A stretch of 64,000 nucleotides of DNA from Phoronis australis (Eukaryota; Animalia; Phoronida), in assembly GCA_002633005.1 (NCBI GenBank), contig NMRA01000313.1, forward strand, positions 329,339-393,338. Direction: 5' to 3'. Below are positions 14,001 through 64,000 of this stretch, piece after piece. The notes below the pieces were generated by a model, which was given only the letters and a program-made list of their open reading frames with translations, was not told the origin of the DNA and searched no databases. Position numbers and translations under genes: made by a program. The first letter of the stretch is position 1. Every line of letters begins with the position of its first letter.

Positions 14001-14896
14001 AAGTAAATGGAACATGCACAAGCAGACTTGCATGTCCATGGATTAGCTCGTCATTTGTTTAAGCCTTACTGACTGACTCAGTGACACGAGCTCTTTTCAC
14101 GATCATGTCCGAAAATTTGGTGTCTGAACGGGCGGTGGGCGGCTGGCCATTTACATCGCAAACGTGAGCTTGCGAGCTCATTAAATTTTTCGGGACGTAT
14201 GTTGAACATAAATGATATTGCAGATCGATTGTGTGCGTCTTAGGGAACTGATTTTAGACAATGCACGTTAATCATATTAAAGCTGTTCCGGAAACTAGGT
14301 CTTAACCGTAGTGTGTTTACGTTTGGTACGTTTGTAAGTAATTTTCCATTTTTAGTTTTAGCTATTCAATGGGAAACGCAGAAGTAGGCCTCCATGAGTA
14401 TTTGGTTTATGCAAATTATGACGTCTGATATCGTTAATCTTACGCGCACGCACAATGCTATAGACTTCTTTTGCGCATTCATAAATTGTTCTTGGTGTTT
14501 CAGTTGTACAGGAAATATTGATAAACTGTACATGTCTAATAAAACATTTAATTACAATCAATAAACCTGCTTAGCTGATAAATCCTCCAATTACATTGAA
14601 CGTAATCTTCGACTGGCTTACAGTCATTAGTCTAGAGCACGTCGATAGCCGATGGACAACCCATTTAATTAAATTTGCCCCAAATCTCTCCGGATTACCC
14701 ATTGTCAATATACAGTTCCGCATATAGTGATTGCCAGACACGCTGAAAACTCTCGATTGACCGAGTCTCGTTAATAGTCACCGCAACAACAGGGCGACCC
14801 GAACCGACAAGGCCGGTGTACATGTTACGTGTAAATGGTTGACTCTTGTTCACTTCTTTACAGATTTCTCAAGACCGATCCATTCGACTGAGCGTC

Positions 14897-15496
14897 ATGC
14901 CCGAGCAAAGCAACGACTACCGGGTCGTGGTGTTCGGTGCGGGCGGCGTGGGTAAAAGTTCTCTGGTTCTACGCTTCGTGAAGGGCACGTTTAGGGAGAG
15001 CTATATCCCAACAATAGAGGATACCTATAGACAAGTAATCAGCTGCAATAAACAAGTGTGTACGCTTCAAATCACGGACACGACGGGAAGTCATCAATTC
15101 CCAGCTATGCAACGACTGTCAATATCGAAAGGACACGCCTTTATCTTGGTGTATTCCATTGCCAGCAAGCAATCGTTGGAGGAGCTCAAGCCTATCATGC
15201 AAGAAATTTTAGAAATAAAAGGCGATGTAGAAAAAATTCCCATCATGCTTGTGGGAAATAAATGTGACGAAACGGCGCGTGAGACCACAGAAAGTTTTGG
15301 GCGGCAGGTGGCAAAATCGTGGAACTGTGCATTTATGGAAACGTCAGCGAAAACGAATCATAACGTTAAGGAAATGTTCGAGGAGCTGTTGAACTTGGAA
15401 ACAAGGCGAGCTATCAGCTTACAGCCGGCTGACAGCAAAAAATCTAAATCAGATAAACGGAAGGAGAAATTAAAAGGGAAGTGTGTTGTGCAGTGA
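14897..15496 (+). CDS. DIRAS: GTP-binding protein Di-Ras (DIRAS1/2 family), 199 aa, intronless CDS
   Basis: [22 protein letters not shown] start, PTIEDTY effector loop, DIRAS-diagnostic [26 protein letters not shown] and ETSAK motifs, polybasic tail and CAAX CVVQ. Splice acceptor (ttcacttctttacag) ends at 14863, so the 5' UTR is spliced. Confidence 0.97.
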
Positions 15497-19420: not shown

Positions 19421-31638
<12,218 letters not shown>

Positions 31639-34045: not shown

Positions 34046-43093
<9,048 letters not shown>

Positions 43094-48869: not shown

Positions 48870-48985
48870 ATGAATGTTGATGTTGTCGGTCGTATACGAC
48901 CTTCATACGGATCTGGACCTCTCCATGGTCTTCATATAGACAGCCATCACCGTATCACCAGCCGCTCAGGAGGTAACCACTTCAG
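48870..48985 (+). CDS. Kinesin/CCDC78-like coding exon 1
   Basis: acag|ttgaccATG; MNVDVVGRIRPSYGSGPLHGLHIDSHHRITSRSGGNHF(S)|gtagg. Confidence 0.85.
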
Positions 48986-51900
48986 GTAGGCAGATTCACA
49001 TATTTCAGAGAACCTGATTTGGGAACGTGTGCCACGCTAGTTTATTCGCATTTCCTTGCATGTGGGATGGGAAAGGAGGTCAGTTTCTGTAGTACAGGTT
49101 ATGAACTCTTGTTCCCGGCCCTCAAATCCTGTGTTTCCTGAGCATTCGAGGCACACTACTGGTAGATTGCCGCCGATTTGTGTACCTCATCCGTGGTTCA
49201 TTACAGAAAGCCATAAACTGTTTTTAAGCTGTACTTGGCTAAGCTGGATGGGGTGATTGGTTTTTACCACTTTTCAGTTTTATGATGGCTGTTGGCAGTG
49301 TGGAGTGACCGTGTGAGTATTGGGCTAACTGTCTCTCTCTCTTCTTGTATTGTCAGTTGCTGGACTTGAGGCAGCTAAAAATTAAATGTGACATTTTTGT
49401 ATTTTGAATCAATAGAATTTGCGATCTTTGATCTGGGGTCTATGGCAAAATCTCAAAATCCGCATGTAACAATCGCAATTTTTCTGGGTACCCTTGTTTA
49501 GTTTTTTGTAATTGTTAGAGTATGCTAGGACACGGGGGTTTCGGAAATTTTGTTCCCAGATCAAAGATCATGGTTCGTTTCGATGCATAAAATACAAGAA
49601 GTCTGGTTCGATTTGAATTTTAGCCATCTTACTCGCTTAATTCAGGCCCACTAACGTTTACTAGTTGCTGGAGCAGAGTTTGGCGAGTGTTTGAATGGGA
49701 ATGGATGTAGTGTGAAATTTTTTAAAATAATTGAATGGGAGTCTCTGTATTCAGTGTATGGCACTGTAACTGTACAGACAACAAAGTTTTAATCATAATA
49801 TTTTTGTTAGAAATACTGTATCAGTAAAAATGTCTTGTGTGTTCTTTTTAATGTTTAGTCTAGTATTCATCTGTTTGTAGTTTTTCAAATTGTAATTTTT
49901 GTGGTGGCAAAGTAAACAGAATCTTAAAGCGTCTATTTCTGACATTGATTTATGTAAAACCTTGAAAGCTGTCAAATTTTAAATTTGTTCTAGTTTCACC
50001 AGTTTCAGCTTCTTCCATTTTCATGTTGTAACTAAGTGCAGTCTGAAGTGTTGCAGGAAATGAATATTTTCCGTCTCGTATGAGTATTCTGAATTATCTT
50101 CATGACGTATTTCTCAGCCTTACCATGCAGACTAATTGACTTTTTGAAACTGCCAGACAGTACCGTACACTTTGTCTCTGATCTCCTCTAGCAGATTTCT
50201 AGCGATGAACATAAAGCTATAGTAGTACATAGATATGACATTTTGACTAGTGTTTCAGGATGTCTATCATGTATTGATTAATTAATTTTCAAGAAGCACC
50301 TGGCCACAAAAGGCACTGTTGTAAAATCAAATCAACTGAAAACAGCAGCCTATAGGGGTTGATGGCTGTAATATGATGGCTGTCTGTCTAGTTTGGCATT
50401 GATAATGAACGTTATACACTTGTTAAGATTTGTTCTTTTATGACCCAGATTTAAAGATTGTATAAACAATGGATTTTGAAAGTCGGTTGTGTGCGAGTTG
50501 TTATCCATTGTCTGCTTTGATAGTAAACCCATGGATTCTATTAAATATCAACTTTTGATTTAGGTCTTTTTTGAAATTCGACTCATTGTGTTCCTTACTC
50601 AGGTTAGAATTGAGATTTGATTAGAAATAATGTGTTGGCTTGAGAAGAACTCAGGACAGGTTCATTGCTTCAGACATCGTCCAATTAAGTTACTATTCAC
50701 CTCAGGTTAGTTTCAGAAGCCAATCAGGAGAATTCAAGAAAAATTATTGAGTAACCAGTTCAATTTAAAGCCTATCATCAACGTTAACAAATTTAATTTT
50801 TTCCTACAGTATGTTAAGAGCATTGCTCTGAGCTCACTAGGTCCATAAACTGACAAATGTAACTGTTAGCCGAGAGAATCACCTTTTAATTCAAAAAGCT
50901 ACAAATAACACCTTCACCCAATGGTGTTCTATTCAGACCCTATTCAATACAACTGTTATCGGCCTTTTGTTGTTTGTGCTGGGATCTCGCGGTGACGCAA
51001 TATGGTACGAAAAGGCAGCTTCATCTATCATTTGACGTGCCTACACTTCCGTGATTAAACTCGCGTTTTCTTATCTTGCTAGGGCTTTGCTATAACTTCC
51101 TGGTTAACCCAATAAACTTAAATTACAAAATTCCATTGAAATTAGGCTTTAACAAGTAGTGCTGTCCACATACAGACTTTACCCTAAAACAAGTTACTCC
51201 TGGAATGACTTGTCGTTAGGTTTAAGGGTTGTGTGTACGCTGTTTAAACTAGTGCAACTTACCCCACCTGTGACAACTTACTACACCTTATCGAGGTGGG
51301 GTAATTTGTTCTAGGGTAACTTGCGCCACTTCTAATTCTTGTGTAGCTGCAAATGTGGGGCAAGGTGGAAGTAATTATCCTTCTTTACATACCGACGGGT
51401 CTTCTTTTGTGCATCGTATTGCATCGACTGTTCATTGTTATGCTCAAAGCGACGACTTCCGCCTTGCACTAGTTATCGGATATTTATGTAGTGACGCTCC
51501 ACTTAAAGTGGTACAAGTTCCACGAGTGCAAGTTGTTCTAGGGTAGGGCCTAAGTCTGTCTATGGACGGGATTAAAGAATTAGCAGAATGACATTAGCTT
51601 GGAGAAGCATTAATACACCTGTGAAGGCCGGTATCTAGGCCTGGGGTCTAATCATTTGTTGGTGGTATATGTGGGTTAATGTGTTATCCTATTTTGTACT
51701 CGATGACCCCAAGATTAAAGCTATAAGTTTGAGTTTTTACTTGAAATCTTGAGTTTGTTGCTCAAATCTACTGTAGGGGTCATCAAGTGAAAATTTAGGC
51801 TACACTCTCGTTTGCATTATCCGTAACATACTCAAGCGCTGACTAATAGATAATGATCTTGAGTTCGTGGGGCAATTGGTTCCTAAACATCCGGTGACTT

Positions 51901-54900
51901 CTCTAAATGGGAGATGCGTAATTAAGTCATTCCTAATTTGAGTAAGGTACGTTTTATGAGTTTAATTTTATAAACGAACTAAATCAGAAGTTGGTTTTCA
52001 CCACGAGTTTATCGTTCATTTTATTGTAATGTGTTTATGTTGGTCCCAGTTCAAAGAATCCATTTAATTCAAAATTTTTGCTGGAACAAATTCTGTTGCG
52101 CATATGGTCTCCAATAGTGACACCTATTGGTCACAAAGTGCAGTATCAGTATATTGTTCCTTAAGGAATTTTCATTTCTAAGTTTTGCCATTCAGTGAAG
52201 GGTACGGTAATTTTTGCTCGTCTTATGATTGATGCGACACTGCATCTGAATGCAGTTGGGCTCTCAGCAACATTATGAAAAAGAGGCTACATACTCTTAG
52301 AGAGCAACAGTTATTTTTTCTCCAATATTCTGCATGCAGTGTTTTTTCATGAAAACCTGTCAACATTATAGTACACGAAATTTTCATTTCCGTCATTTCC
52401 TTTTGAGGAATGGTGCCTGGGCTGAAACTGTAAGTTACATTTTGTGCATTGCAGCTTCCAGAGCTTATACAGGGGAGATAACAACACATATGAACTCTAC
52501 AAGTCTTCTCTCCATTCCCTGTTGGAGTTGTTTGTCAGTGGATACAATGTGTGTACTCTCGTTGCTGGCGAAAGTGGGTCTGGCAAGTCACACCTGGTCG
52601 CGGGCGACTCGGCAAGTTCATCTGGCATCGTGCCCGTGATTTTAGACCACTTGTTTGCTAAAATTGCTGAAGGTACGTGCTTTTGAATTCTCCAAGTCAG
52701 TCTGGCAATGTTTTTAAAAGTTACCGACGTTCAAATGTTGGTAGACCAGTTAAAAATGATGAGTCTTATAAAAATGCTGAACCCAGAAAAATCAGGAACC
52801 TCAACTGGGAATCGAACCGCAGGTCTCTTGATTGCCAGTCTAGTGCTCTTACCACTTCAGCTACTGAGGACCCGATGTCTGTGCTATTACTGTTTGCGGC
52901 CAGCTGTTGTCATACATCCCATGAGAGGCGTTTCGCATTTTCCACATGAGATTTGGACATGGAATTATATAGTCAGCAATTTACCAGTATGTGTTTACCA
53001 GTATGTGTTAATTAGATATAGCAAATATATAGACGCTGAGGTTGGCCAATAGTGAGATACATCAAATAATTGCACTAGCTCAGTGGTAAGAGCACTAGAC
53101 TGGCATTCTAGAGACCTGTGGTTCGATTCCCAGTTGGGTTTCCTGATTTTTCTGTGTTTATTTGATATTTATGCTCGGAATATGTCCCGAAAATAATAGG
53201 TGCGTCGCAAGCTCCGTTTCCAGAGATACAAAGGAGACCGTGTATAGGCGATATAAGGTCATTTATTATGACTGATAAGGTACAGAAATATGAGTGTACA
53301 AATAACATAAAGATAAAATAATAATTTCTGGAAAGATGGGCAATAAAAAGCGCCACGAGAGATGTTGAAGACATCTCATGCCCATGCTGGGGGCTGCAAC
53401 TCCAAAGGCAGAATGTGAATTCACTATTTTAGAATGTGGTTCTTAGAATCGACCTGTCATTTCTAAAACGAGGCTAATGCATATTCCTACCTCCTGGACA
53501 AAGGATATTTCTATCCGGTTCAGTCTTATTGGTCAATTTTTGAGTCTAATGTTGAGACCGGAGATTAGATCCCAGTCTCAAAGCTGGGTGGCGTTAATTA
53601 AAATATTTAAGTTTGATTCTTGATTTCAACTGCGTTGGTCAACACTATCGACGTGAAGCCTGATAGTGTTGGATCATGATGGTGTTGGATCATGATGGTG
53701 TTGGATCATGATGGTGTTGGATCATGATGGTGTTGGATCATGATGGTGTTGGATCATTGATGGTGTTGGATCATTGATGGTGTTGGATCATGATGGTGTT
53801 GGATCATGATGGTGTCGGATCATTGATGGTGTTGGATCATTGATGGTGTTGGATCATTGATGGTGTTGGATCATTGATGGTGTTGGATCATTGATGGTGC
53901 TGGATAATGATGGTGTTGGATCATGATGGTGTTGGATCATGATGGTGTTGGATCACTGATACTATTCAGCGTTTAACTTTTAATGTATGCAGGTCAGCAA
54001 CAGACACCACTCCTTAGATATTACAAGTGGGTTCTCTTTTGAGATGCTGCAAAGCAAATTGACTAGTTTCATAACAACAATCAATTCCACCTGTTTCCCA
54101 AATTCTGCTCTCCTCTTTTGCGAAGGTAGAAAAATGCATAGTATGATCGACCTAGTTTTTGGTAGGCTGCTAATATACTTCCGAGGTGAGAGGAACAAGT
54201 GAACAATTTATCATGCCCCACTCAGTCTTTCGAATGTTTTATGTGCGTGTTGTAATCCGTGTTACACTAAAATTTAAGTGGCATTACAATGTTCGATTCG
54301 TCAACCACGAATTAAGTTGCCACATACAAAATGTTTGTTGCTAAGCGTGCAGGACACTCTTAATTTTCCTTTTGACTAAAAAACTAAAAGAAAACGCCCT
54401 TCGGGCAGTTTTGGGTAGATCAACAGATATTTGTTGAGTTTGCCGGTTCTTTATTCCATCTGTTGCAGCTGTGCAGCCACCACAAAATGGCAACCCCTAT
54501 ATGGTGTTTCCTTGTTTTAGAGACTTCAGTTTCCATTTGGTGACCTGGAAACTTTCCCAGGTCACATTTGGTGAGTTGATGTCGAGTGTCATGCCCTACA
54601 TTAGAATGACTTATGCATGTTATGGTACTTCAAACTAATTTTGATGAAAAACAATGATTAACATTGGGAACAGTGGGATGAATGGCCTACAGAAGCACAG
54701 CGTTGTGGGTATATACTGCTGAATGACAGAGTGCATTGTGGTATTTTGGAAGTGGCTATTTCAGCTCTCAGTCAGCAAGACATGATTGTTGATTTATGAT
54801 GTTATCTAGTGGAAAAGTTTAGCATGTCACTCATTGTAACTTTAAAGGAGCATGCCACCCAAAAAACAACCTATTTTGTATCAATTTACATCGAGTAGTT

Positions 54901-57900
54901 CTACTCGATAACGGCACGTTCGGTTGCGTTACCTGACACCTGACGGCAGACGGAGGTGTTGAAATTATCCAATGACATCATTAGTTTCATACGCAGTCTG
55001 TTCAGCAGTTCACAACACGGGTTATTAGTGTCAGCTTATCACTTGAAGTCATCGCTTAACACCAATAAATCATCAAACTTCAATGTAAAACCCTTAAAAA
55101 TACACTAAGTTCTTATACAAACGTGTTGTTTGATTTCACTTTTACGTATTTATTTGGACACACCGTAGCCTACAAAGTTCGGCAGGCCAATTTACCAATT
55201 GGTTCGAAGCTCGAGTTTGGGGTCTGTGTGGAGATAAATTCGAAGTATTCTTCCGTGAAATACAGACAGGAGAACCTAGATTTGTGTTGTTTAGACTTGT
55301 GATTTTTTGAGTTCTAAACGCTTGTTATCCCGGCCAGTGGCTCGGAACCCGATCAGACCCATCGCGGCCGGACTGAAGACATCACGAACATAAACCAGCC
55401 AAAGTTGGAAATTAAACTTCCAGTCAAGAAAATACTAGACTAGTGAGCCAAAGAAGTTATGTGCACTTGATTATGTTGGTGAATTAGCCACGAAACTGCA
55501 AATCTACTTACTCGTCAGCTGCCACGAATTCAGGTTCCCCTTTGACCCGTCAGTGCAGAAGTTGTACATTTGACAATCATTATTTGAATAATGTATATAT
55601 AAATAAGGATTCCCGTAACACCTGGCCGTGGGATAGAAAATCGAGTTATTGTTTCACAGTTCCTGTCAGCAAACACTGAATTAGCATGCGCTCACATGGC
55701 CTTAGTTGGTGCCCGGTCAATTACCTTTATTGCATATGAATCCGGTAACGCAGCGATTTATTCATTGCTGGCTTCTCAAAACATTTGCACTCATGAGTAC
55801 TCCAATTAGGCATTACAAATTGTATCTAATGAGACAGCCTTTGTTTCAGTTTGATATAAGCATTGGTTAGGGCTGGAATATTTCATTTTGAAACAGAATG
55901 CACAACGTCAACAGAATACGAGAGTTCATCCACCGAAGACTTTGCAGGTGGATCGTTAAGTTTCACAAGCTATCAGTTCGAACCGGAATAAATTGATCAA
56001 GAAATACTAGAGAGGCGCCGTGAACATGCACAGACAACGGAACGTATGGATAGTTCTTTGGTATTCTGGCATTCGTCAGACTCACTGTCAACGACTGCCG
56101 GCCACATCGGACACGGAGATGTTTTACGGCCTCATACTTGTTATTTACAGTGTACTTTTCATTCTTCACTACCGCGAGCCACTTCCTAAGCATTTTGGGC
56201 TCTCGAGGAAGTAAAAAACGATATATCTGCTTTCTTCGCAGCTTCATAGTTTGGACAAGCGGGATGCACAGCAATATAGTGGCATTCACTCTGTAGATGA
56301 ACCATTGACATCGCTGCAACACTTCTCACCTTCCTCACAGGTTAACGCGACACCTCTTGGCAAGGTGAGGTCGACTGCGTAAGAGGCAATGTGGATATAG
56401 ACCGATTCAGATGGAAAAAAAGACTAATTAAATTGGGTGGCATTCTCTTTAAAGGTGACAAAATGAAATTTTGTAATAAAAGTGAATTTATCTGTTAATA
56501 GAGGAACAGTCCCTTGGCTCCCTGGCTTATAACCAGGACAGCAGGGTTACACTACAGATGTATGAAGTATATAACGAGACAGTACGAGATCTTCTCCAGC
56601 CTGGAAGGGGGCGCTCTACTGACTACCTGGAGTTGGATGAGAATCCTGACAAAGGAGTTTTTGTTCAGGTGATACTTCAGTCTATAACTTCCGTTGCATT
56701 CTGGGAAGACTGAGTCTTTGCTGTCATCACACCCACTGTCAGGGTTATTGTCATAATCTTAAAGCTTTTGAGTCTAAACTCGAAATCTTCCATTATAGAT
56801 CTCGAGTTAGACTACTAGCTTGAATTTAGGGGTCAATCAAGTTCAAATTCGAACTAGAAATTCACGTGGCTAAACCATAACTTGCTCGAAAATACAGTAC
56901 TAGAAGCTTATCTTGATTTCAGAGAATAGAGAATAGTTTAGCGTAATTTGAAGTTGAGAGATTAGACCGCGGGTCATGGTTCGATTGTGACATTTGTTCA
57001 AACCCATGTACAGGAGACAGTGTGACTCAGTGGTTAGAGCTCCGGACTCCTGTTTGGGAGACCCGGGTTCAAATCCTGGCTTGACTGGCAGACAATTGAG
57101 CATTGCACAAAGGTGTCTCCTATTCCTCTGAGCGCGGTCTTACTTGTGAACGTGTGCAAGGGAGTGAATGAGAACCTGGATATAATGCAAAAGCGATTTC
57201 TGGGGCTGTGCTCATATTAAAAGTTGGGCTCTGAAAATGTAAATACAGTTACTGTGTTAACTGAATACATTACTGCTCACTGGTCATCTTTTCATGTTTT
57301 TTAATGTTTGATTCTGAAAATTGCGTGTTTTAAATAAACAAATTGGAATTGAAATCTTAATTTCAGGGTGGTGAAAGTGTGTCGTTCAAGAATTCTGCTG
57401 ATGCCACTCGCACATTCCGCCAAGCATTTAGCCGGCGAGTCAACAGCACCACAGACTTCGGACCCGCACGGAATCACTCGACTGTTATTATTTATATTGA
57501 CCTCACCCTGGTATGTAAACTTACCAGAATCTTTTGCATAATCGCTGGTTTTAATCGGTTGAAATTTTTAAATTGGGTGCAGAACTAAGCAGTCCAAAAA
57601 GTGGAGACCAGTTTCAAATAATGAAAGGTGACCTAAATAGAAACTTAAAGTCCTTCTTGCAAACTGACCATGTGGTTCCAGTATCCGAAAATACTTACCA
57701 CATAAATTCTTATTTTCGACACCCTTTCTTTATATTCTTTTCGCCTTTCTTGCCAAAAGCGATTTTTTAACAGTATTTGACCCTTCTCTCTGAGCGTGTG
57801 ATTACCGGTTGTCATCGGTTATTTCCGTACCGACATTTACGGCTCATCAGTTCTGGAACTTGTCCTGAACGCCGCCATTTTTTCCTTGTAACTGAATGTG

Positions 57901-60900
57901 CTATGGCTTGCTTCATTATTTTGTTTTATTAGTAATATATCATGATTCGTTTGCATATGTAGTGTATTTATAGTTTGTAGTTAGTGGTCGCTGATTTTTT
58001 TTGGAATGTTACGCGTACTTAGTATGTTAAAATAGCATTGGTGTTTAGTTCCTTACGTAGGCGGGTCGAACCTAGGAACCAATATGGGTCGAACCAATTT
58101 TTTTCGGTTTTATTTTTTTCTTCGTTTTGAAAAAGTACTTTGCTATCATCGGAAAGGTAGTACATTGTACTCAGTAAAAATCGAAAAAGTATCAAAATCG
58201 GGGCAAGCACTGTAAAGTTATTGCAAGTTTTGTAGCGAAATTTGGGTCACTTTTGGATCGCGTCGGCCATATTGGAGGACAGCGGGATGAGTTACGAGTT
58301 TAAAACTTTGTGTAAATTTTTTTCGCCAACAAATTACGGTGAAATTTAGTTAGACATATCTTTACTTACTATTCTGCACGATTTAACAGTGTTCACCAAT
58401 TTTCAGTTGTTACTCATTAAGTGATAAATGTGCTCACAATTCCCGTTGGACTTCGTCTCATTTCTGGCGGCACCTACAATGTGGACTTTTGCTGAACTGA
58501 AAGGCATGTTCAATCGGCTACTTTGTAATTTGTGAAGATTTAACGTTGATACATTTTGACAAATGTTGCTACAAAAAAGAAACTTTGTTCAATTTTCGTG
58601 TTTTTTTTGTGTTTGTGGTCAGCGACCAGTTAGACCTAAGGGTAGTCTTGGCACAAAGCTGTATAGGCCTACTAACAAGCTGTATTTTGACTATTAGTCT
58701 TCACTGGTAGCTGGTGACTGAGGCTAACTAAGGTCTGCCGCGGCAGTGTGACACAGGACTAACCAGCCCGTTATTTCATGCAAGTGTCTGAAACTACCCT
58801 TGAACATATGCAGCATTTATCATTTGACCATTTTACTTCGACAAAACAGCTTGCAACCGCATGCATTTACCATTCGCCAGTGTTTGGTCTCGATCTGCAC
58901 CTGGTCCGATAGGCTGCGGTCCCGAGTCTGGCAAAATAATTTCTGTCAAAATTTATTCGCCACATTTCTTTAGCAAATTCCATAAAATTGTCCGTAGTTT
59001 GATTTTATCAAAATTAAGGCGCGCTGTTGATTTTTTTTTATCCCCATTTGCTGGCTGGTAACAGTACAGGCACTGCTCCAGTCGCACTGACGGCGTTTTC
59101 TCGGCCTGGGTTCCTGAATGAATTGTACTTCCGGGTTCGCGGCAAGTTTAAAATGGCGGTGTTTCTTCGGGTGCAAATCGTGAGTGGCGTGTTCATTTAA
59201 ACTGTTTTCGAGTACGGATCGTGTATTAGTTATGGGGTAGGTACTTCTTGGATCCTTATAACATCTTCTAACCATGTAATAAGGGTTAACAACGCGTGAG
59301 AGAAGGACTTTAAAGTTGATTTACTTTGACATAAGGCAGATTTATAGGAACATCACACAAGTACTAATGCTTAATCGTTTAGTATGACATCTTGGACCCA
59401 GTCAAATAGAATTAAAATGACAAAATTAAAAAAAAATGAATGCTAGATTTACGTAGCACTGTAAATTACTTGGCACTTTGAAAATTCTTACCTGGTTATG
59501 GACCTGGTCAGTTGTAATCCTTCTCAACTCCTTCTCAACTCCCGGGGATCGTGTAACAAATGCAACCATTTTCTGCACACAGCGATTAATTTTAGACACA
59601 ATTTTGTAAAAGTTTCAAGTGTTATTATGAGCCCGTGCTTACCTGAATTGGAAAAACGTCCAGCAAAACTGGTGAAAATGTGATGTGACTGCATTTTTAT
59701 TACAACTTGTGGACCTAAATCGTGTCACAATAAACATCGTGCTTTCAGCCATCTAGGGACAACCCATATCCTAACAAATCTCGCTTCACTATTGCCATGT
59801 TATCTGGCGTGGAACAGTTGGGAGATGGACCGGAGTACAGGCGTCTCCGAGACGGGGGTCAACTGAGCCAGCCTATAATGGCTGTCAGTAAGTTAGCAAG
59901 CCAACTGTCGCGGGAGCCCTACTCCAACAGAATCATTGACTACAGGTGAGTGAGGCTGGAAAGTATCTGTGGTTATAAATACGTTGTAGTTGTTGTTTCT
60001 ACTGGTTATTTTTTAACTCGCTGTTTGATTTATGGTGATGTAGGACCTCATCGACAAGTCTCTTTATTTAGCCAAATATTAACAAAACTGTAGCTTTTGA
60101 CTTTTTAAAAGTATTTTCTAGAAGCAGAAGACAGATGTGGCTCTGAAATTCACCAGTAGTGTGCGCTACATGAGCTACCACTAACAAAATAATAAAAATT
60201 GTTTGAAATTAAGGAATGTTTCCGTAAGAGGGTTGGGAGAATTCTTATTGTAATAGTAGCATGGAACTTTCTGTGAAACGTCTGTTCTGCATGATTCCAG
60301 TGGCTCCAAGGTGACTCAGCTGTTGAAGGAGGAACTGGGAGGGAACGTCAAGACACGCGTGGTCGTCTGCTTAAAACCAGAAGAGACAGACGCTTTGAGT
60401 CATATGCTCAAGCTGGCCACTGATCTGTCTCTAGTGAAGAACTACCCTGTATTGAATGACTGCTGGGCACAGGTCAGTCATGGTAGTGGATAGTGGAGGT
60501 CGTGACGTGGTCGTGACCAAGGCCAGTTACAATGACTTGGAAAAGACAGTAAATCGAATATGCTCAATTACCATTTTGAGAGCAATAATTCAGTATGTTG
60601 TTCTACGGCCTCTTAATTTGTAAAGACTACAACTTTCATGTATTTGACATTAGAATTTCTTTATTTAACAATCCCTAAAAGTTGTGTGGAAACTCAATTT
60701 GTTTATTTAAAAAAAATTAATATTAATTTATTATTGCACAAATAAGGTCTTAAGGAACATTGTTTGGGTGGCAAAATTTTGTATTTTTGATTTTTGACAG
60801 CAAAATTAATTACATTGCTTCACTGTTTTCAGGATCACGATTACAAAACACTTTCTTTTTAAAATAGTCCCAAAATCGTGTACTATAGTGGTTGGCGAGG

Positions 60901-63423
60901 AATTGATTGAGATATTAGCTAAGTATATTTTTTACAAAACTTTTTTCTGTGCTTACAATGAGATTGTGTTTTCATTTCAGAACCTTATCACCCAGTATCG
61001 AGCACGTATATTAGATGGTCAAAGGTTACTAGGTACTGGAGTTGGGCTGATTACCCCCAATGGTGTTGGTAACCCCAGCGACGCACTGCAGAAGATGTAC
61101 ACTGAAAATGTAAGAAACGAGGCATGTTGAATAAATCTTTACCATAAGAATACTGTCTGCCCTGTTCGCGTTTATATATACGTGAAGCTGTGCCAATATC
61201 TCAAATCTGGTTCATGTGTCTTTCTGTAAATAATCATTGGGTAAATTGAGAAGCGATAGTGTGTGAATCAAACTAGACTTTTTTGTTACAAAATGACATT
61301 TAGTGTAGATAAGTATAGTATGGACAGAATGTACAAGCGTTTGAGGTGTACATGTCACTTGTCTGTTTGCTTGGCAACAGATGCAGCTGAAGGACAAGAG
61401 TGAACGTCTGTTCAACAGAATGGAACAGATGCAGGGTCGCTATGGACATCTGGCTAATAGTAAAACAGACATCTCGGCTCAACTACTGGCAGCTGAGGAG
61501 GAAAAATTGAAGGTGTGTGACTTTTCACTGTTTTTATGTTATTTCAATTCTTATATTTAATTAACAAAGCGTGCACACACTTTGGATTACAGGTTATTAT
61601 ATACATTTCTTTTGGTCTTTTTATGTTTTTTCTTGTGCATGACGAGAATGGTGAATTTTGGAAACTTGTTCCATTTCGACATATGACTGGAAAAGCCACC
61701 TGCTGTGACGAAAGCAATTTCCTGCATTCGTTTGGTATCCTTTGGCCAATAACATGGAAATATTGTATCAATTGTCTTTCGAAATAAAGATCTTGATGTT
61801 TTGAGATCAGTTAGTAAGTGGGTATTTCATCATATATCGGTATAAAACATAATTGCTATTTGTGATATCTTTTAAAACATATCCTATTAACAGCTTTTTG
61901 GAGAACAGTCTATTAAGCATGATACTTGGAAGTTTCACATGAATCTGGTAAACCAATTCTGAGATATAGTGCTCTGAAGTTTGCCAAATTTGGACATTTT
62001 TTGAAGGTCCTGCGTAATCTTAACTACTCTGAGCACCTTAACCCTTATCCTGCTAAGCCTCTATTCAGACAACTTTCCCTGTGTGCTAAGCTAAGTAGGT
62101 CACCACTGCTGCTATGCACTGGGCTGTTATGAAGGTCACTCAGATTAATGACCTAACATTTTTAAATTGGAAATTTGAAGGGGTAATGTCAATTTTACAT
62201 AAAAGTAGTCTGCACAAAAGTTGTTCAGAATTTAATGGAGTTTTTCACCATATACATATCTTTACCATCGTCTTGCTGTGAATAATTCTATTAACTTTCA
62301 AACTGGACACTCTTTGTTTTTATCTGTTTTCGCACATGAGAACATTATAGCAGACACTCAAAAACCGTAATAAGCATTTTTAAAAGGGAATTCATGGGAT
62401 TTGCATGTTTAACAAAGCAGATTTATTGTTTGTAACATCACATCTACAAACAAGAATGTACAGTATATAACATAGGGCCTACCTCAACTTTGCACGATAA
62501 CAAATTTATGAGTGGTGCAGTCGCTTGCTAAAGTCTGTTTTGAAGTTCACCTTGACATGCAAAAACTTGAATCACGGGTGGGGACACAAAACTATTCTGT
62601 GAAAAAGTCACAAAAATATCTAGTTCTGAATGAGTTCCATCATGCGCGAATGGCGTGAGCCAAGCATCGTCGTAGGCCCGTCCAAGTTCAGCTTCAGGGA
62701 CCGGTAACTCCTCCAAAATTGCACCGAGATCCGAATCGATAGAATCTGCATTACTTGTGACTGTTGTATTAGTTTCCCAGTCACTGTCACCGTCACTTTG
62801 AGTAGCAATTCCAGCTTGTTTTCACTATCTGAGTCCATGAACACTTCCTCAAGAAACTGGTCAACAGTCATCTTACCACGTTTGGCACCAGCCAAGATAA
62901 AACTTGCGTAAACTTTCAAATATCTCAGCAACAACTCACCACAGCCATATGTTGTAAATCAGAAAAATGTACAGGAAACTATGGACTGTGGAATGCGCAT
63001 GCTCACATATATAACCAGCATACGGGGCTTTCACAATTTCTGAATGAAAAACACCAGTGTCCTGGGGTGAGTACACTCTCCTTGCGCAGTCTAGCCGTAG
63101 CTTATTATAGGCGATTGAGTACACCCGACGCATTTTAGTAGGATAATTGGCTTGTCGGCTGACCTCGCCTAGCGCAGGATAAGGGTTAATCACAATTCAC
63201 AATAGTGATAATATATTGGGAACTTCTTGGACAATTTGAAGTTTTGAGATGAAGACGGGTTATAATACTTCTTGAATATCAAAGTTATGTTAGGTCCCTC
63301 AGTATTGTTTAATCCAATATTTAAAATTTTATACAGATCTCTCAAGCACTGGTTGAAGTTCAGATTGAGAATAACAAGATACAGGAAGAGATGGAGGCTT
63401 CCAAGTTTGAGCTGACGAACAAG
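48870..63423 (+). CDS. CCDC78: Kinesin-motor-domain / CCDC78-like coiled-coil protein, 5' part (454 codons, continues beyond the last exon found): join 48870-48985, 52455-52672, 56502-56668, 57367-57510, 59749-59945, 60301-60472, 60981-61109, 61381-61512, 63337-63423
   Basis: Nine GT-AG exons join with matching phases and no stop. Kinesin motifs VVGRIRP, GYNVCTLVAGESGSGKS, YEVYNETVRDLL, SKVTQLLKEELGGNVKT, VKNYPVLN are followed by EEEKLK|ISQALVEVQIENNKIQEEMEASKFELTNK, which I recognise from memory as CCDC78-like. Confidence 0.85.
51165..51568. mobile_element. MITE with degenerate ~45-bp TIRs
   Basis: GTCCACATACAGACTT..TACCCTAAAACAAGTT vs reverse complement GTCCATAGACAGACTT..TACCCTAGAACAACTT. 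Confidence 0.6.
52455..52672 (+). CDS. Kinesin/CCDC78-like exon 2 (P-loop)
   Basis: ttgcag|(S)FQSLYRGDNNTYELYKSSLHSLLELFVSGYNVCTLVAGESGSGKSHLVAG...GIVPVILDHLFAKIAE|gtacg. Confidence 0.92.
52780..52863 (-). mobile_element. tRNA-derived SINE head / tRNA-like pseudogene, minus copy
   Basis: Reverse complement reads TAGCTGAAGTGGTAAGAGCACTAGACTGGCAATCAAGAGACCTGCGGTTCGATTCCCAG, with A and B boxes. Confidence 0.7.
53076..53158 (+). mobile_element. tRNA-derived SINE head / tRNA-like pseudogene, plus copy
   Basis: A box TAGCTCAGTGG, anticodon-like stem CTAGA-CTGGCAT-TCTAG, B box GGTTCGATTCC; T and acceptor stems do not pair properly. Confidence 0.7.
53661..53960. repeat. Minisatellite, ~18 copies of 16/17-bp unit GGTGTTGGATCAT(T)GAT
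   Basis: Direct reading; two length variants are interspersed. Confidence 0.95.
54846..56448 (-). mobile_element. Kolobok-like non-autonomous element with decayed THAP remnant
   Basis: TTAA at 54842-54845 and 56449-56452. TIR AGGAGCATGCCACCCAA vs AGAGAATGCCACCCAA. Minus-strand remnant MPLYCC.. (ATG at 56285) and RFLLPREPKMLRKWLAVVKNEK..HLRVRC. Confidence 0.7.
56502..56668 (+). CDS. Kinesin/CCDC78-like exon 3
   Basis: aatag|(E)EQSLGSLAYNQDSRVTLQMYEVYNETVRDLLQPGRGRSTDYLELDENPDKGVFVQ|gtgata. Confidence 0.92.
57013..57225 (+). mobile_element. tRNA-derived SINE (second family)
   Basis: A box TGACTCAGTGG (~57023), B box GGTTCAAATCC (57066-57076), followed by non-tRNA body and an AT-rich end. Confidence 0.6.
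57367..57510 (+). CDS. Kinesin/CCDC78-like exon 4 (switch I region)
   Basis: tttcag|GGESVSFKNSADATRTFRQAFSRRVNSTTDFGPARNHSTVIIYIDLTL|gtatgt. Confidence 0.88.
57649..59309. mobile_element. Probable Kolobok-like non-autonomous element (1.66 kb)
   Basis: TTAA-AGTCCTTCT at 57645-57657 and AGAAGGACT-TTAA at 59301-59313; only a 9-bp TIR; no coding remnant recognised. Confidence 0.55.
59749..59945 (+). CDS. Kinesin/CCDC78-like exon 5 (switch II region)
   Basis: tttcag|PSRDNPYPNKSRFTIAMLSGVEQLGDGPEYRRLRDGGQLSQPIMAVSKLASQLSREPYSNRIIDY(S)|gtgagt. Confidence 0.9.
60301..60472 (+). CDS. Kinesin/CCDC78-like exon 6
   Basis: ttccag|(S)GSKVTQLLKEELGGNVKTRVVVCLKP...VKNYPVLNDCWAQ|gtcagt. Confidence 0.92.
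60981..61109 (+). CDS. Kinesin/CCDC78-like exon 7 (neck region)
   Basis: tttcag|NLITQYRARILDGQRLL...DALQKMYTEN|gtaaga. Confidence 0.88.
61381..61512 (+). CDS. Kinesin/CCDC78-like exon 8 (coiled coil)
   Basis: caacag|MQLKDKSERLFNRMEQMQGRYGHLANSKTDISAQLLAAEEEKLK|gtgtgt. Confidence 0.9.
62042..63185 (-). mobile_element. Internally deleted piggyBac-type transposon (1144 bp)
   Basis: TTAA at 62038-62041 and 63186-63189; perfect 12-bp TIR CCCTTATCCTGC; minus-strand remnant of an acidic transposase-like N-terminus (KRGKMTVDQFLEEVFMDSDSE). Confidence 0.85.
63337..63423 (+). CDS. Kinesin/CCDC78-like exon 9 (CCDC78/DUF4472-like segment)
   Basis: atacag|ISQALVEVQIENNKIQEEMEASKFELTNK|gtaagc; in phase with exon 8; absent from the ORF track. 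Confidence 0.88.
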
Positions 63424-64000
63424 GTAAGCAGACGACATTGTATGCATAGAATTTAAGCCTGCTATAAATTAGTTACAATTTAATACAAAATATCAGGAAT
63501 AGAAAACACCTAGTGTCTTTGAAAATGTTGTCAATTTTCATTTTTTGTCAGTTTAGTAGCTTAGTTGAAGTTGTTTCAACTCAATTGTAATGAGACCAAG
63601 TGATATTCAATGGTTCAGAAAAACAGAAAATAATGCAGTCTTTCTGTAGTTGCAGAATTTGTGTTCATAGTTTAATCCTTTGATGCCAAATGAGAGCATG
63701 TAATTAAGTATTACCAGGAAGAGATAACCAGGAAGGGACAACTGTTTTAGCGCATTTTAACGTGATTTCAAACGTGATTTCAAAAGTAAATGTTCAAGTT
63801 ATCTGGAATCCAAACATTATTTTTGAAAGATTAACTCTTTAGCTATAAAATGACACCACTTTGGTCCTCAAAGACTGCATATTACTGGCACTGGGATGCT
63901 TTGAACGTGACATGTTTACCCTTCCAAAAGATGCTTCTTCCCAGGCATGTACTCGGGCATGAGCCTCTTTTTTGAACCAACAGATGTCACTAACATATGC

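Follow-up and report, generated by a model that had tools for sequence, protein, structure and literature searches.

A long-form CCDC78 gene in Phoronis australis, encoding a kinesin-like head that is probably not a functioning motor

Recent work established CCDC78 as an organiser of the extreme tip of motile cilia (PMC12796433; here and below, statements on published work refer to the accessible parts of the cited papers), and observations made at the level of its family have some value for cilia biology. Vertebrate Ccdc78 is located at the extreme ciliary tip and bundles microtubules, and in Xenopus it is a partner of Ccdc33 at the extreme distal tip (PMC12796433). In Tetrahymena, the protein I7LVY1 (1066 amino acids, aa) combines a kinesin motor domain with a CCDC78 domain (PMC10522465, PMC12796433) and is at least fourfold less abundant in the cilia of FAP256-knockout cells (PMC10522465), its kinesin domain being said to be 'absent from vertebrate Ccdc78' (PMC12796433). 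In the accessible parts of these two papers, I7LVY1 is treated as a kinesin without comment on its catalytic motifs. Here we describe a gene with the same architecture, likened to the Tetrahymena protein by description and not by sequence, in a window of 64,000 nucleotides from the phoronid Phoronis australis (assembly GCA_002633005.1, contig NMRA01000313.1, positions 329,339 to 393,338 of the forward strand). An earlier note, made from the sequence alone, had proposed that a kinesin motor domain is fused in frame to a CCDC78-like coiled coil at this locus.

Kinesin-fold heads used without walking are what the Phoronis protein probably works like. Indeed, KIF26A is an atypical kinesin described as being without ATPase activity (PMC12783630), and KIF7 is described as a non-motile kinesin at the cilium tip. 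Both are likened to the Phoronis protein by function only and differ from it in their tails and pathways.

Gene structure, transcripts and identity of the tail

The gene is made of nine exons (Table 1) separated by eight GT-AG introns, the phases of which fit to give 1362 nucleotides encoding 454 aa with no stop codon. The nine phase-compatible exons and uninterrupted 454-aa frame of the earlier note are thus confirmed, down to the AG acceptors and GT donors, and the neck-like and coiled-coil segments quoted there are found in this product. Exon 9 closes with a donor site, which means that the gene extends past the end of the window; no tenth exon was found within its final 577 bases. With homologues of about 900 aa, the 454 aa would correspond to only about the first half of a protein of roughly 900 aa. 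Alignments with homologues extend over residues 1-454, the best full-length matches being molluscan, and the homologue of the chiton Liolophura sinensis (P0253), which is 47.7% identical over 459 columns, gives collinear tblastn matches to exons 1, 2, 3, 4, 5, 6, 8 and 9. Exons 1 and 2 are covered in order by homologues, with no extra exon between them. Junctions 1-2 and 2-3 were placed from splice signals, phase and these collinear matches rather than from reads.

For the other junctions, RNA was placed on positions 55900-64000 of the window, using three runs (X2-X4) of one study, from each of which about 18-19% of the raw data were taken, together with an older contig set (X1); the link of these data to the animal is the species label, and ten weaker joints were left out of the display. 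All six junctions inside this interval were found in reads, exactly at the predicted bases. From junction 3-4 to junction 8-9, run X2 gave 14, 18, 9, 21, 24 and 31 reads, run X3 gave 7, 16, 16, 12, 13 and 9, and run X4 gave 0, 1, 2, 0, 0 and 0; the X1 contigs provided no support across these junctions. In every junction read the first mate lies on the minus strand, which fits RNA of the plus strand in most stranded libraries. Exons 3-9 are therefore expressed, including every motor-to-coil junction. The placement of motor and coil in one gene is borne out by junctions 5-6, 6-7, 7-8 and 8-9, each present in two runs, and the RNA check suggested for exons 6-9, carried out with 151-base reads, has motor and coil exons spliced together rather than belonging to separate genes. 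A dominant head-less isoform was also considered at this locus and is not indicated: counts rise from 14-18 to 21-31 in X2 and do not in X3, and the linker of exon 7 is without Met, the first one being residue 377.

Of note, three intronic stretches (Table 1) attract many RNA reads that are 90-95% alike and map on both strands. They are transcribed interspersed repeats, far more abundant in RNA than the exons of the gene.

Regarding the tail, the Pfam domain DUF4472 (PF14739) matches exon 9 alone with 35.0 bits, above its gathering cut-off of 26.6, at positions 8-36 of the 107 of the model. Residues 374-453 align with the N-terminus of Xenopus tropicalis CCDC78, with 41/80 identical positions (51%) and an expectation value (E) of 1.9e-23, versus an E of 0.38 for the best non-family protein among the 313 compared, a set assembled from the same family searches and not equivalent to a proteome-wide reciprocal best hit. 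The Xenopus protein has no kinesin head and starts 11-16 residues upstream of the coiled coil. When the amphioxus coil was searched, 227 matches were obtained, and 120/120 among the matches listed carry PF14739. From these 120 came 118 new relatives, selected by their tail, among which a full head is present in 43 and a partial one in 11, the other 64 being head-less. Both domains expected by the earlier note, Kinesin and DUF4472, were thus recovered by the Pfam scan, and by sequence comparison the tail is that of CCDC78 and no other kinesin stalk. The gene is the 5' half of the Phoronis australis CCDC78 gene, in its long form.

Catalytic motifs of the head and its candidate role at the ciliary tip

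The motor homology of the head is clear. Pfam Kinesin (cut-off 29.3 bits) matches the frames of exons 2, 3 and 6 with the scores given in Table 1, exons 1, 4, 5, 7 and 8 taken singly giving nothing relevant in Pfam. Against the PDB, exon 2 matches 67 distinct sequences at E<=0.001, of which 60/60 among the matches listed belong to the kinesin family; with exon 5, a search of the ESM Atlas returned low-score bacterial hypothetical clusters only. The fold was modelled with AlphaFold on the homologue of the clam Mya (44% identical, 599 aa, 47-row alignment). With a mean predicted local distance difference test score (pLDDT) of 80.4, the model contains a kinesin-type core, a neck helix, a disordered linker and a 170-residue helix, and its leading PDB matches are kinesin motors without exception, a kinesin-2 motor ranking first (TM-score 0.90, root-mean-square deviation 2.6 A). 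The head is hence predicted to have a kinesin fold, and the long coiled coil is predicted to dimerise two heads. The 'full N-terminal kinesin fold' of the earlier note stands with respect to motor homology and falls short with respect to the canonical switch I and II motifs, which are missing.

Kinesins share the consensus motifs GQTxxGK(S/T) in the P-loop, NxxSSR in switch I and DxxGxE in switch II (PMC5076506). In Phoronis, the corresponding sequences are GESGSGKS, GPARNH and MLSGVE. Motifs were counted in 64 family rows picked by hand and in 26 control kinesins, all taken from the same searches. The P-loop pattern GxxxxGK[S/T], to which the Phoronis sequence conforms, is present in 53/56 family rows and 26/26 controls. 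The switch I motif NxxSSR is found in none of the 56 scored family rows (8 more being gapped) versus 23/25 controls, and DxxGxE in 12/62 relatives versus 24/25 controls, the Phoronis sequence failing by the loss of its Asp; in the stricter form DLAGSE, switch II is seen in 0/62 family rows and 24/25 controls. When each genus was reduced to one row (48 rows, each unnamed row counted on its own), Lys and Ser/Thr of the P-loop were both invariant (48/48), switch I Arg occurred in 2/48, with the three SSR columns highly variable, and switch II kept its Asp in 12/48, its Gly in 43/48 and its Glu in 46/48, Pro replacing Ala in 47/48. Phoronis lacks this Pro, and its helix 4 is more divergent than that of the family. 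As the P-loop residues are invariant, the switch motifs lost and a kinesin fold predicted, the pattern across the family indicates selection on the fold and the nucleotide loop and none on the hydrolysis switches; the head probably does not function as a motor. The Glu that replaces the usual Gln of the P-loop, in Phoronis as in 46/48 relatives, was rejected as proof of a dead motor. As a separate observation, the P-loops of Ambystoma (P0235) and Alligator (P0252) carry Arg where the Gly preceding Lys is expected, and that of the alligator is also without the following Ser/Thr, which suggests that the head has degenerated further in those tetrapods where it persists.

Studies of KIF5A illustrate what such changes may entail. 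Its microtubule-stimulated ATPase, normally 6.77 per second, drops to 0.35 with the substitution S202N, to 0.50 with R204Q and to about 0 with R204W (PMC5498027). In the same paper, the Arg-Glu bridge between the switches is described as required for switch closure. We consider it fairly probable that the Phoronis head is a non-walking microtubule clamp or bundler that works as a dimer and holds microtubule ends together where motile cilia terminate, at their tips, and we infer each functional step from sequence or by analogy. The head would still bind nucleotide, given the invariance of Lys and Ser/Thr in the P-loop. Its hydrolysis of ATP would be weak or nil, since the bridge between switch I Arg and switch II Glu is missing, as are the magnesium-coordinating Ser and Asp. 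It would grip microtubules through its loop 12/helix 5 surface, whose mean conservation is 0.78 in the family versus 0.69 in control kinesins (0.74 versus 0.66 for the LGGN element). By transfer from data on Xenopus, mouse, human and Tetrahymena, the protein would act at the ciliary tip, and since frog Ccdc78 is able to bundle microtubules without any head, this domain would be an accessory grip that lineages could drop.

Several points weigh against such a clamp. KIF5A R204Q and R204W bind microtubules less well (PMC5498027), so that tight binding cannot be deduced from the missing Arg alone. Legal et al. report a lower abundance of I7LVY1 and call its tip binding 'likely', with no direct localisation in the accessible part of their account, and the alignments behind the motif counts include no ciliate sequence. 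Within the family, xAGSE is retained in two members (Owenia, P0102), Arg occupies the switch I column in two members, and the sponge has SSR nearby. The fold model is that of the 44%-identical Mya homologue and not of the Phoronis protein, whose helix 4 agrees with the family consensus at only 4/17 positions. Finally, the invariant P-loop and the conserved Gly and Glu of switch II could serve a slow, unconventional ATPase.

This last possibility can be extended to a slow or unconventional active motor, with a family-specific switch I loop, that would transport the CCDC78 tail towards the plus ends of microtubules in the ciliary tip. It would account for the residues kept in the P-loop and switch II, for the family motif TDxGP conserved just ahead of the switch I column, and for the retention of the neck-like segment and coiled coil; myosins, whose P-loop also starts with GES, are likewise active. 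Such a motor nevertheless appears unlikely, NxxSSR being strictly conserved in kinesins (PMC5076506) and missing from 56/56 rows here, with highly variable SSR columns, and single changes in switch I being already sufficient to cripple KIF5A (PMC5498027).

The earlier note had instead suggested a link between centriole-biogenesis platforms and microtubules, in which the head would tether deuterosome-like centriole-amplification platforms or basal bodies. Part of this idea finds an echo in published work, as Xenopus Ccdc78 marks deuterosomes and apical foci, human CCDC78 and centrin co-localise at the base (PMC12796433), and deuterosome-like structures are reported in some invertebrates (review, PMC4926731). 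However, mouse Ccdc78 was not detected on Deup1 deuterosomes, Deup1 itself is reported to have arisen within vertebrates (PMC4926731), and in Tetrahymena, where the head-bearing form is present, the evidence leads to the ciliary cap (PMC10522465). Together with the tip localisation and bundling data, these observations make a tether at centrioles quite improbable for the head; the deuterosome role is a weaker, contested functional lead, and the ciliary tip is preferred.

It is even harder to believe that the head no longer binds microtubules and is a protein-interaction or auto-regulatory domain, all microtubule activity residing in the tail. Head-less Ccdc78 does bundle microtubules on its own (PMC12796433), annotated head-less forms occur in six clades, and helix 4 of Phoronis is divergent, but in loop 12/helix 5 and LGGN the family is no less conserved than the control kinesins, which speaks against this reading.

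An erroneous junction of tandem kinesin-like and CCDC78 genes is hardly credible and two separate genes are rejected, since, even if no 151-base read reaches from head to DUF4472 and the head is split off in a few database entries (Latimeria P0039, Lytechinus P0165), spliced reads cover the motor-to-coil junctions in two runs, head and tail share one chain in the 43 full-head and 11 partial-head relatives among 118, and homologue alignments run over the whole 454 residues.

Distribution of the family and losses of the head

The clamp proposed for Phoronis would concern a whole family. An index-free search with exon 2 recovered 151 proteins (150 among the matches listed), and of 29 longer relatives scanned by Pfam, 8 carry both Kinesin and DUF4472. 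Proteins of Ruditapes, Branchiostoma, Nematostella and Lytechinus are named CCDC78(-like) by their sources, as is that of Dysidea, which has no DUF4472 match at the threshold used. In RefSeq, kinesin-headed proteins of 850-950 aa bearing this name come from sponge, anemone, molluscs, amphioxus, sharks, lungfish, axolotl and alligator. The family (PF00225 followed by PF14739), which includes proteins of Liolophura sinensis, Dreissena, Mya, Ruditapes (XP_060564516.1), Branchiostoma (XP_019633836.1), Nematostella (XP_048584307.1), sharks, Protopterus, Ambystoma and Alligator (KYO32479.1), shares with the Phoronis protein the order of the domains, the degenerate switch motifs and a single head clade. 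Indeed, in a FastTree phylogeny of 66 heads, obtained after removal of 8 short rows and thinning of 17 near-duplicates, the Phoronis protein and 40/40 family heads group together (0.998), separately from the 25 control kinesins, Phoronis grouping with molluscs and the annelid Owenia (0.854). Because this tree roughly follows animal phylogeny, a recent lineage-specific fusion was rejected.

The Phoronis gene is hence an ordinary orthologue of a known, annotated family, and the fusion architecture is not new, being found in RefSeq and UniRef names, in precomputed Pfam and, for the Tetrahymena form, in two papers. The earlier note had rightly anticipated similar architectures in automated annotations, and had wrongly seen in this gene an invertebrate form of CCDC78: an invertebrate-only form is rejected, as the head is present in shark, ray, lungfish, axolotl and alligator records and in the described Tetrahymena I7LVY1. 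The Pfam text on DUF4472 mentions kinesin domains. Among the papers listed in the literature searches, which left most subscription journals outside, no account of the animal long form, of its lost switches or of repeated loss was seen, nor was any paper naming DUF4472 obtained, and the term 'pseudokinesin' appeared only in use for a fungal group. Word-indexed protein searches gave no match among 404 candidates for exon 2, nor for the single candidate obtained with the exon 9 frame and flanking intron codons, a limit of sensitivity given that the index-free search recovered the family. Family members or fragments also circulate under ordinary kinesin names (kinesin heavy chain-like, KIN-1, KIF19, CENPE, KIF3B-like), among them P0039 (Latimeria), P0070 (Rhincodon), P0165 (Lytechinus), P0160, P0196 and P0281, and the family is thereby hidden in annotations.

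The records place the head, probably without motor function, in several vertebrate lineages, despite the published statement of its absence from vertebrate Ccdc78. In a tree of tails built on 53 hand-picked named records, with presence or absence of the head taken from annotation alone, head-less forms make up six clades nested among head-bearing ones, namely three land snails, seven ray-finned fishes, four frogs, three lepidosaurs, turtles and four birds; six is the clade-level reading, the raw Dollo count being 9 under either coding of four partial records. Head-less forms start 10-38 residues upstream of the coil, and in several pairs their start Met matches an internal linker Met of head-bearing kin: sharks with bichir and sturgeon, salamanders (roughly) with frogs, alligator with turtles, and Lymnaea and Physella with Candidula and Arion. 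One turtle isoform keeps the last helix and the neck, and the alligator has long and short isoforms. These six clades and their frequent start at a Met that is internal in head-bearing kin suggest that the head has been lost repeatedly, a pattern that truncated gene models could mimic. Among the matches listed (120 of 227) in the amphioxus coil search, there were no mammals. As regards snails, the head-less land-snail records P0283, P0288 and P0305 measure 558-559 aa, freshwater pulmonates keep the head, and a loss in parallel to that of vertebrates is possible.

Taken as a single joint claim, about which we are slightly more doubtful than confident, ancestral CCDC78 may have been a ciliary-tip pseudo-kinesin with a hydrolysis-dead, nucleotide-binding head. 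This head would have persisted in animals ranging from sponges and anemones up to sharks, lungfish, salamanders and alligators, and at least six independent losses would have removed it, in land snails, ray-finned fishes, frogs, lepidosaurs, turtles and birds, mostly through a start at the linker Met. If true, this claim would amend the assertion in print that a motor domain is absent from vertebrate Ccdc78, and it would provide sister-taxon pairs (axolotl/frog, alligator/bird, pond snail/land snail) in which to probe the contribution of the head to tip structure. Should assays confirm that the head is not a motor, an ancient pseudo-kinesin class would be added, with the repeated losses as a natural comparison.

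Exon coordinates and other features of the window

Table 1. Coordinates of the CCDC78 exons and of other features in the 64,000-nucleotide window
Feature	Coordinates	Strand	Residues	Content	Evidence
Exon 1	48870..48985	+	1-39	Start ATG; first strand with RxRP motif (RIRP)	tblastn of homologues P0253, P0021
Exon 2	52455..52672	+	39-112	P-loop GESGSGKS, aa 77-84, about 52567-52590	Pfam Kinesin 43.7 bits
Exon 3	56502..56668	+	112-167	Central strands of motor core	Pfam Kinesin 28.2 bits; 3-4 junction in reads
Exon 4	57367..57510	+	168-215	Degenerate switch I	Alignments; both junctions in reads
Switch I region (exon 4)	about 57460-57483	+	199-206	GPARNHST where NxxSSRxH is expected	
Exon 5	59749..59945	+	216-281	Degenerate switch II, loop 11, helix 4	Both junctions in reads
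Switch II (exon 5)	about 59797-59814	+	232-237	MLSGVE; Asp lost, Gly and Glu kept	
Exon 6	60301..60472	+	281-338	Helix 5, LGGN, last strand, helix 6, neck-like segment	Pfam Kinesin 23.9 bits; aligned with CENP-E 285-337 through the neck; reads
Exon 7	60981..61109	+	339-381	Short neck helix, Gly-rich linker, start of CCDC78 coiled coil	Both junctions in reads
Exon 8	61381..61512	+	382-425	Coiled coil corresponding to the N-terminus of head-less vertebrate CCDC78	Reads
Exon 9	63337..63423	+	426-454	Start of DUF4472; ends in GT donor	Pfam DUF4472 35.0 bits; reads
Intronic repeats	55900-56440, 57530-59420, 61860-63220			Transcribed interspersed repeats	RNA reads on both strands
Tandem array (intron 2)	53661-53960			16-17-base unit, about 18 copies	95% matches
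Ras-family frame	14843-15496	+	about 200 aa	Intron-free GTPase frame, CaaX-type end CVVQ	Pfam Ras 162.8 bits
Alpha-tubulin-like genes	22664-25527, 34993-41932	-		Two tandem genes	93% identical over main exon

Outside the CCDC78 gene, the window contains an intron-free Ras-family frame, which resembles DIRAS, and a pair of alpha-tubulin-like genes situated about 7 kilobases upstream of the CCDC78 start. The proximity of tubulin and CCDC78 genes is probably due to chance.

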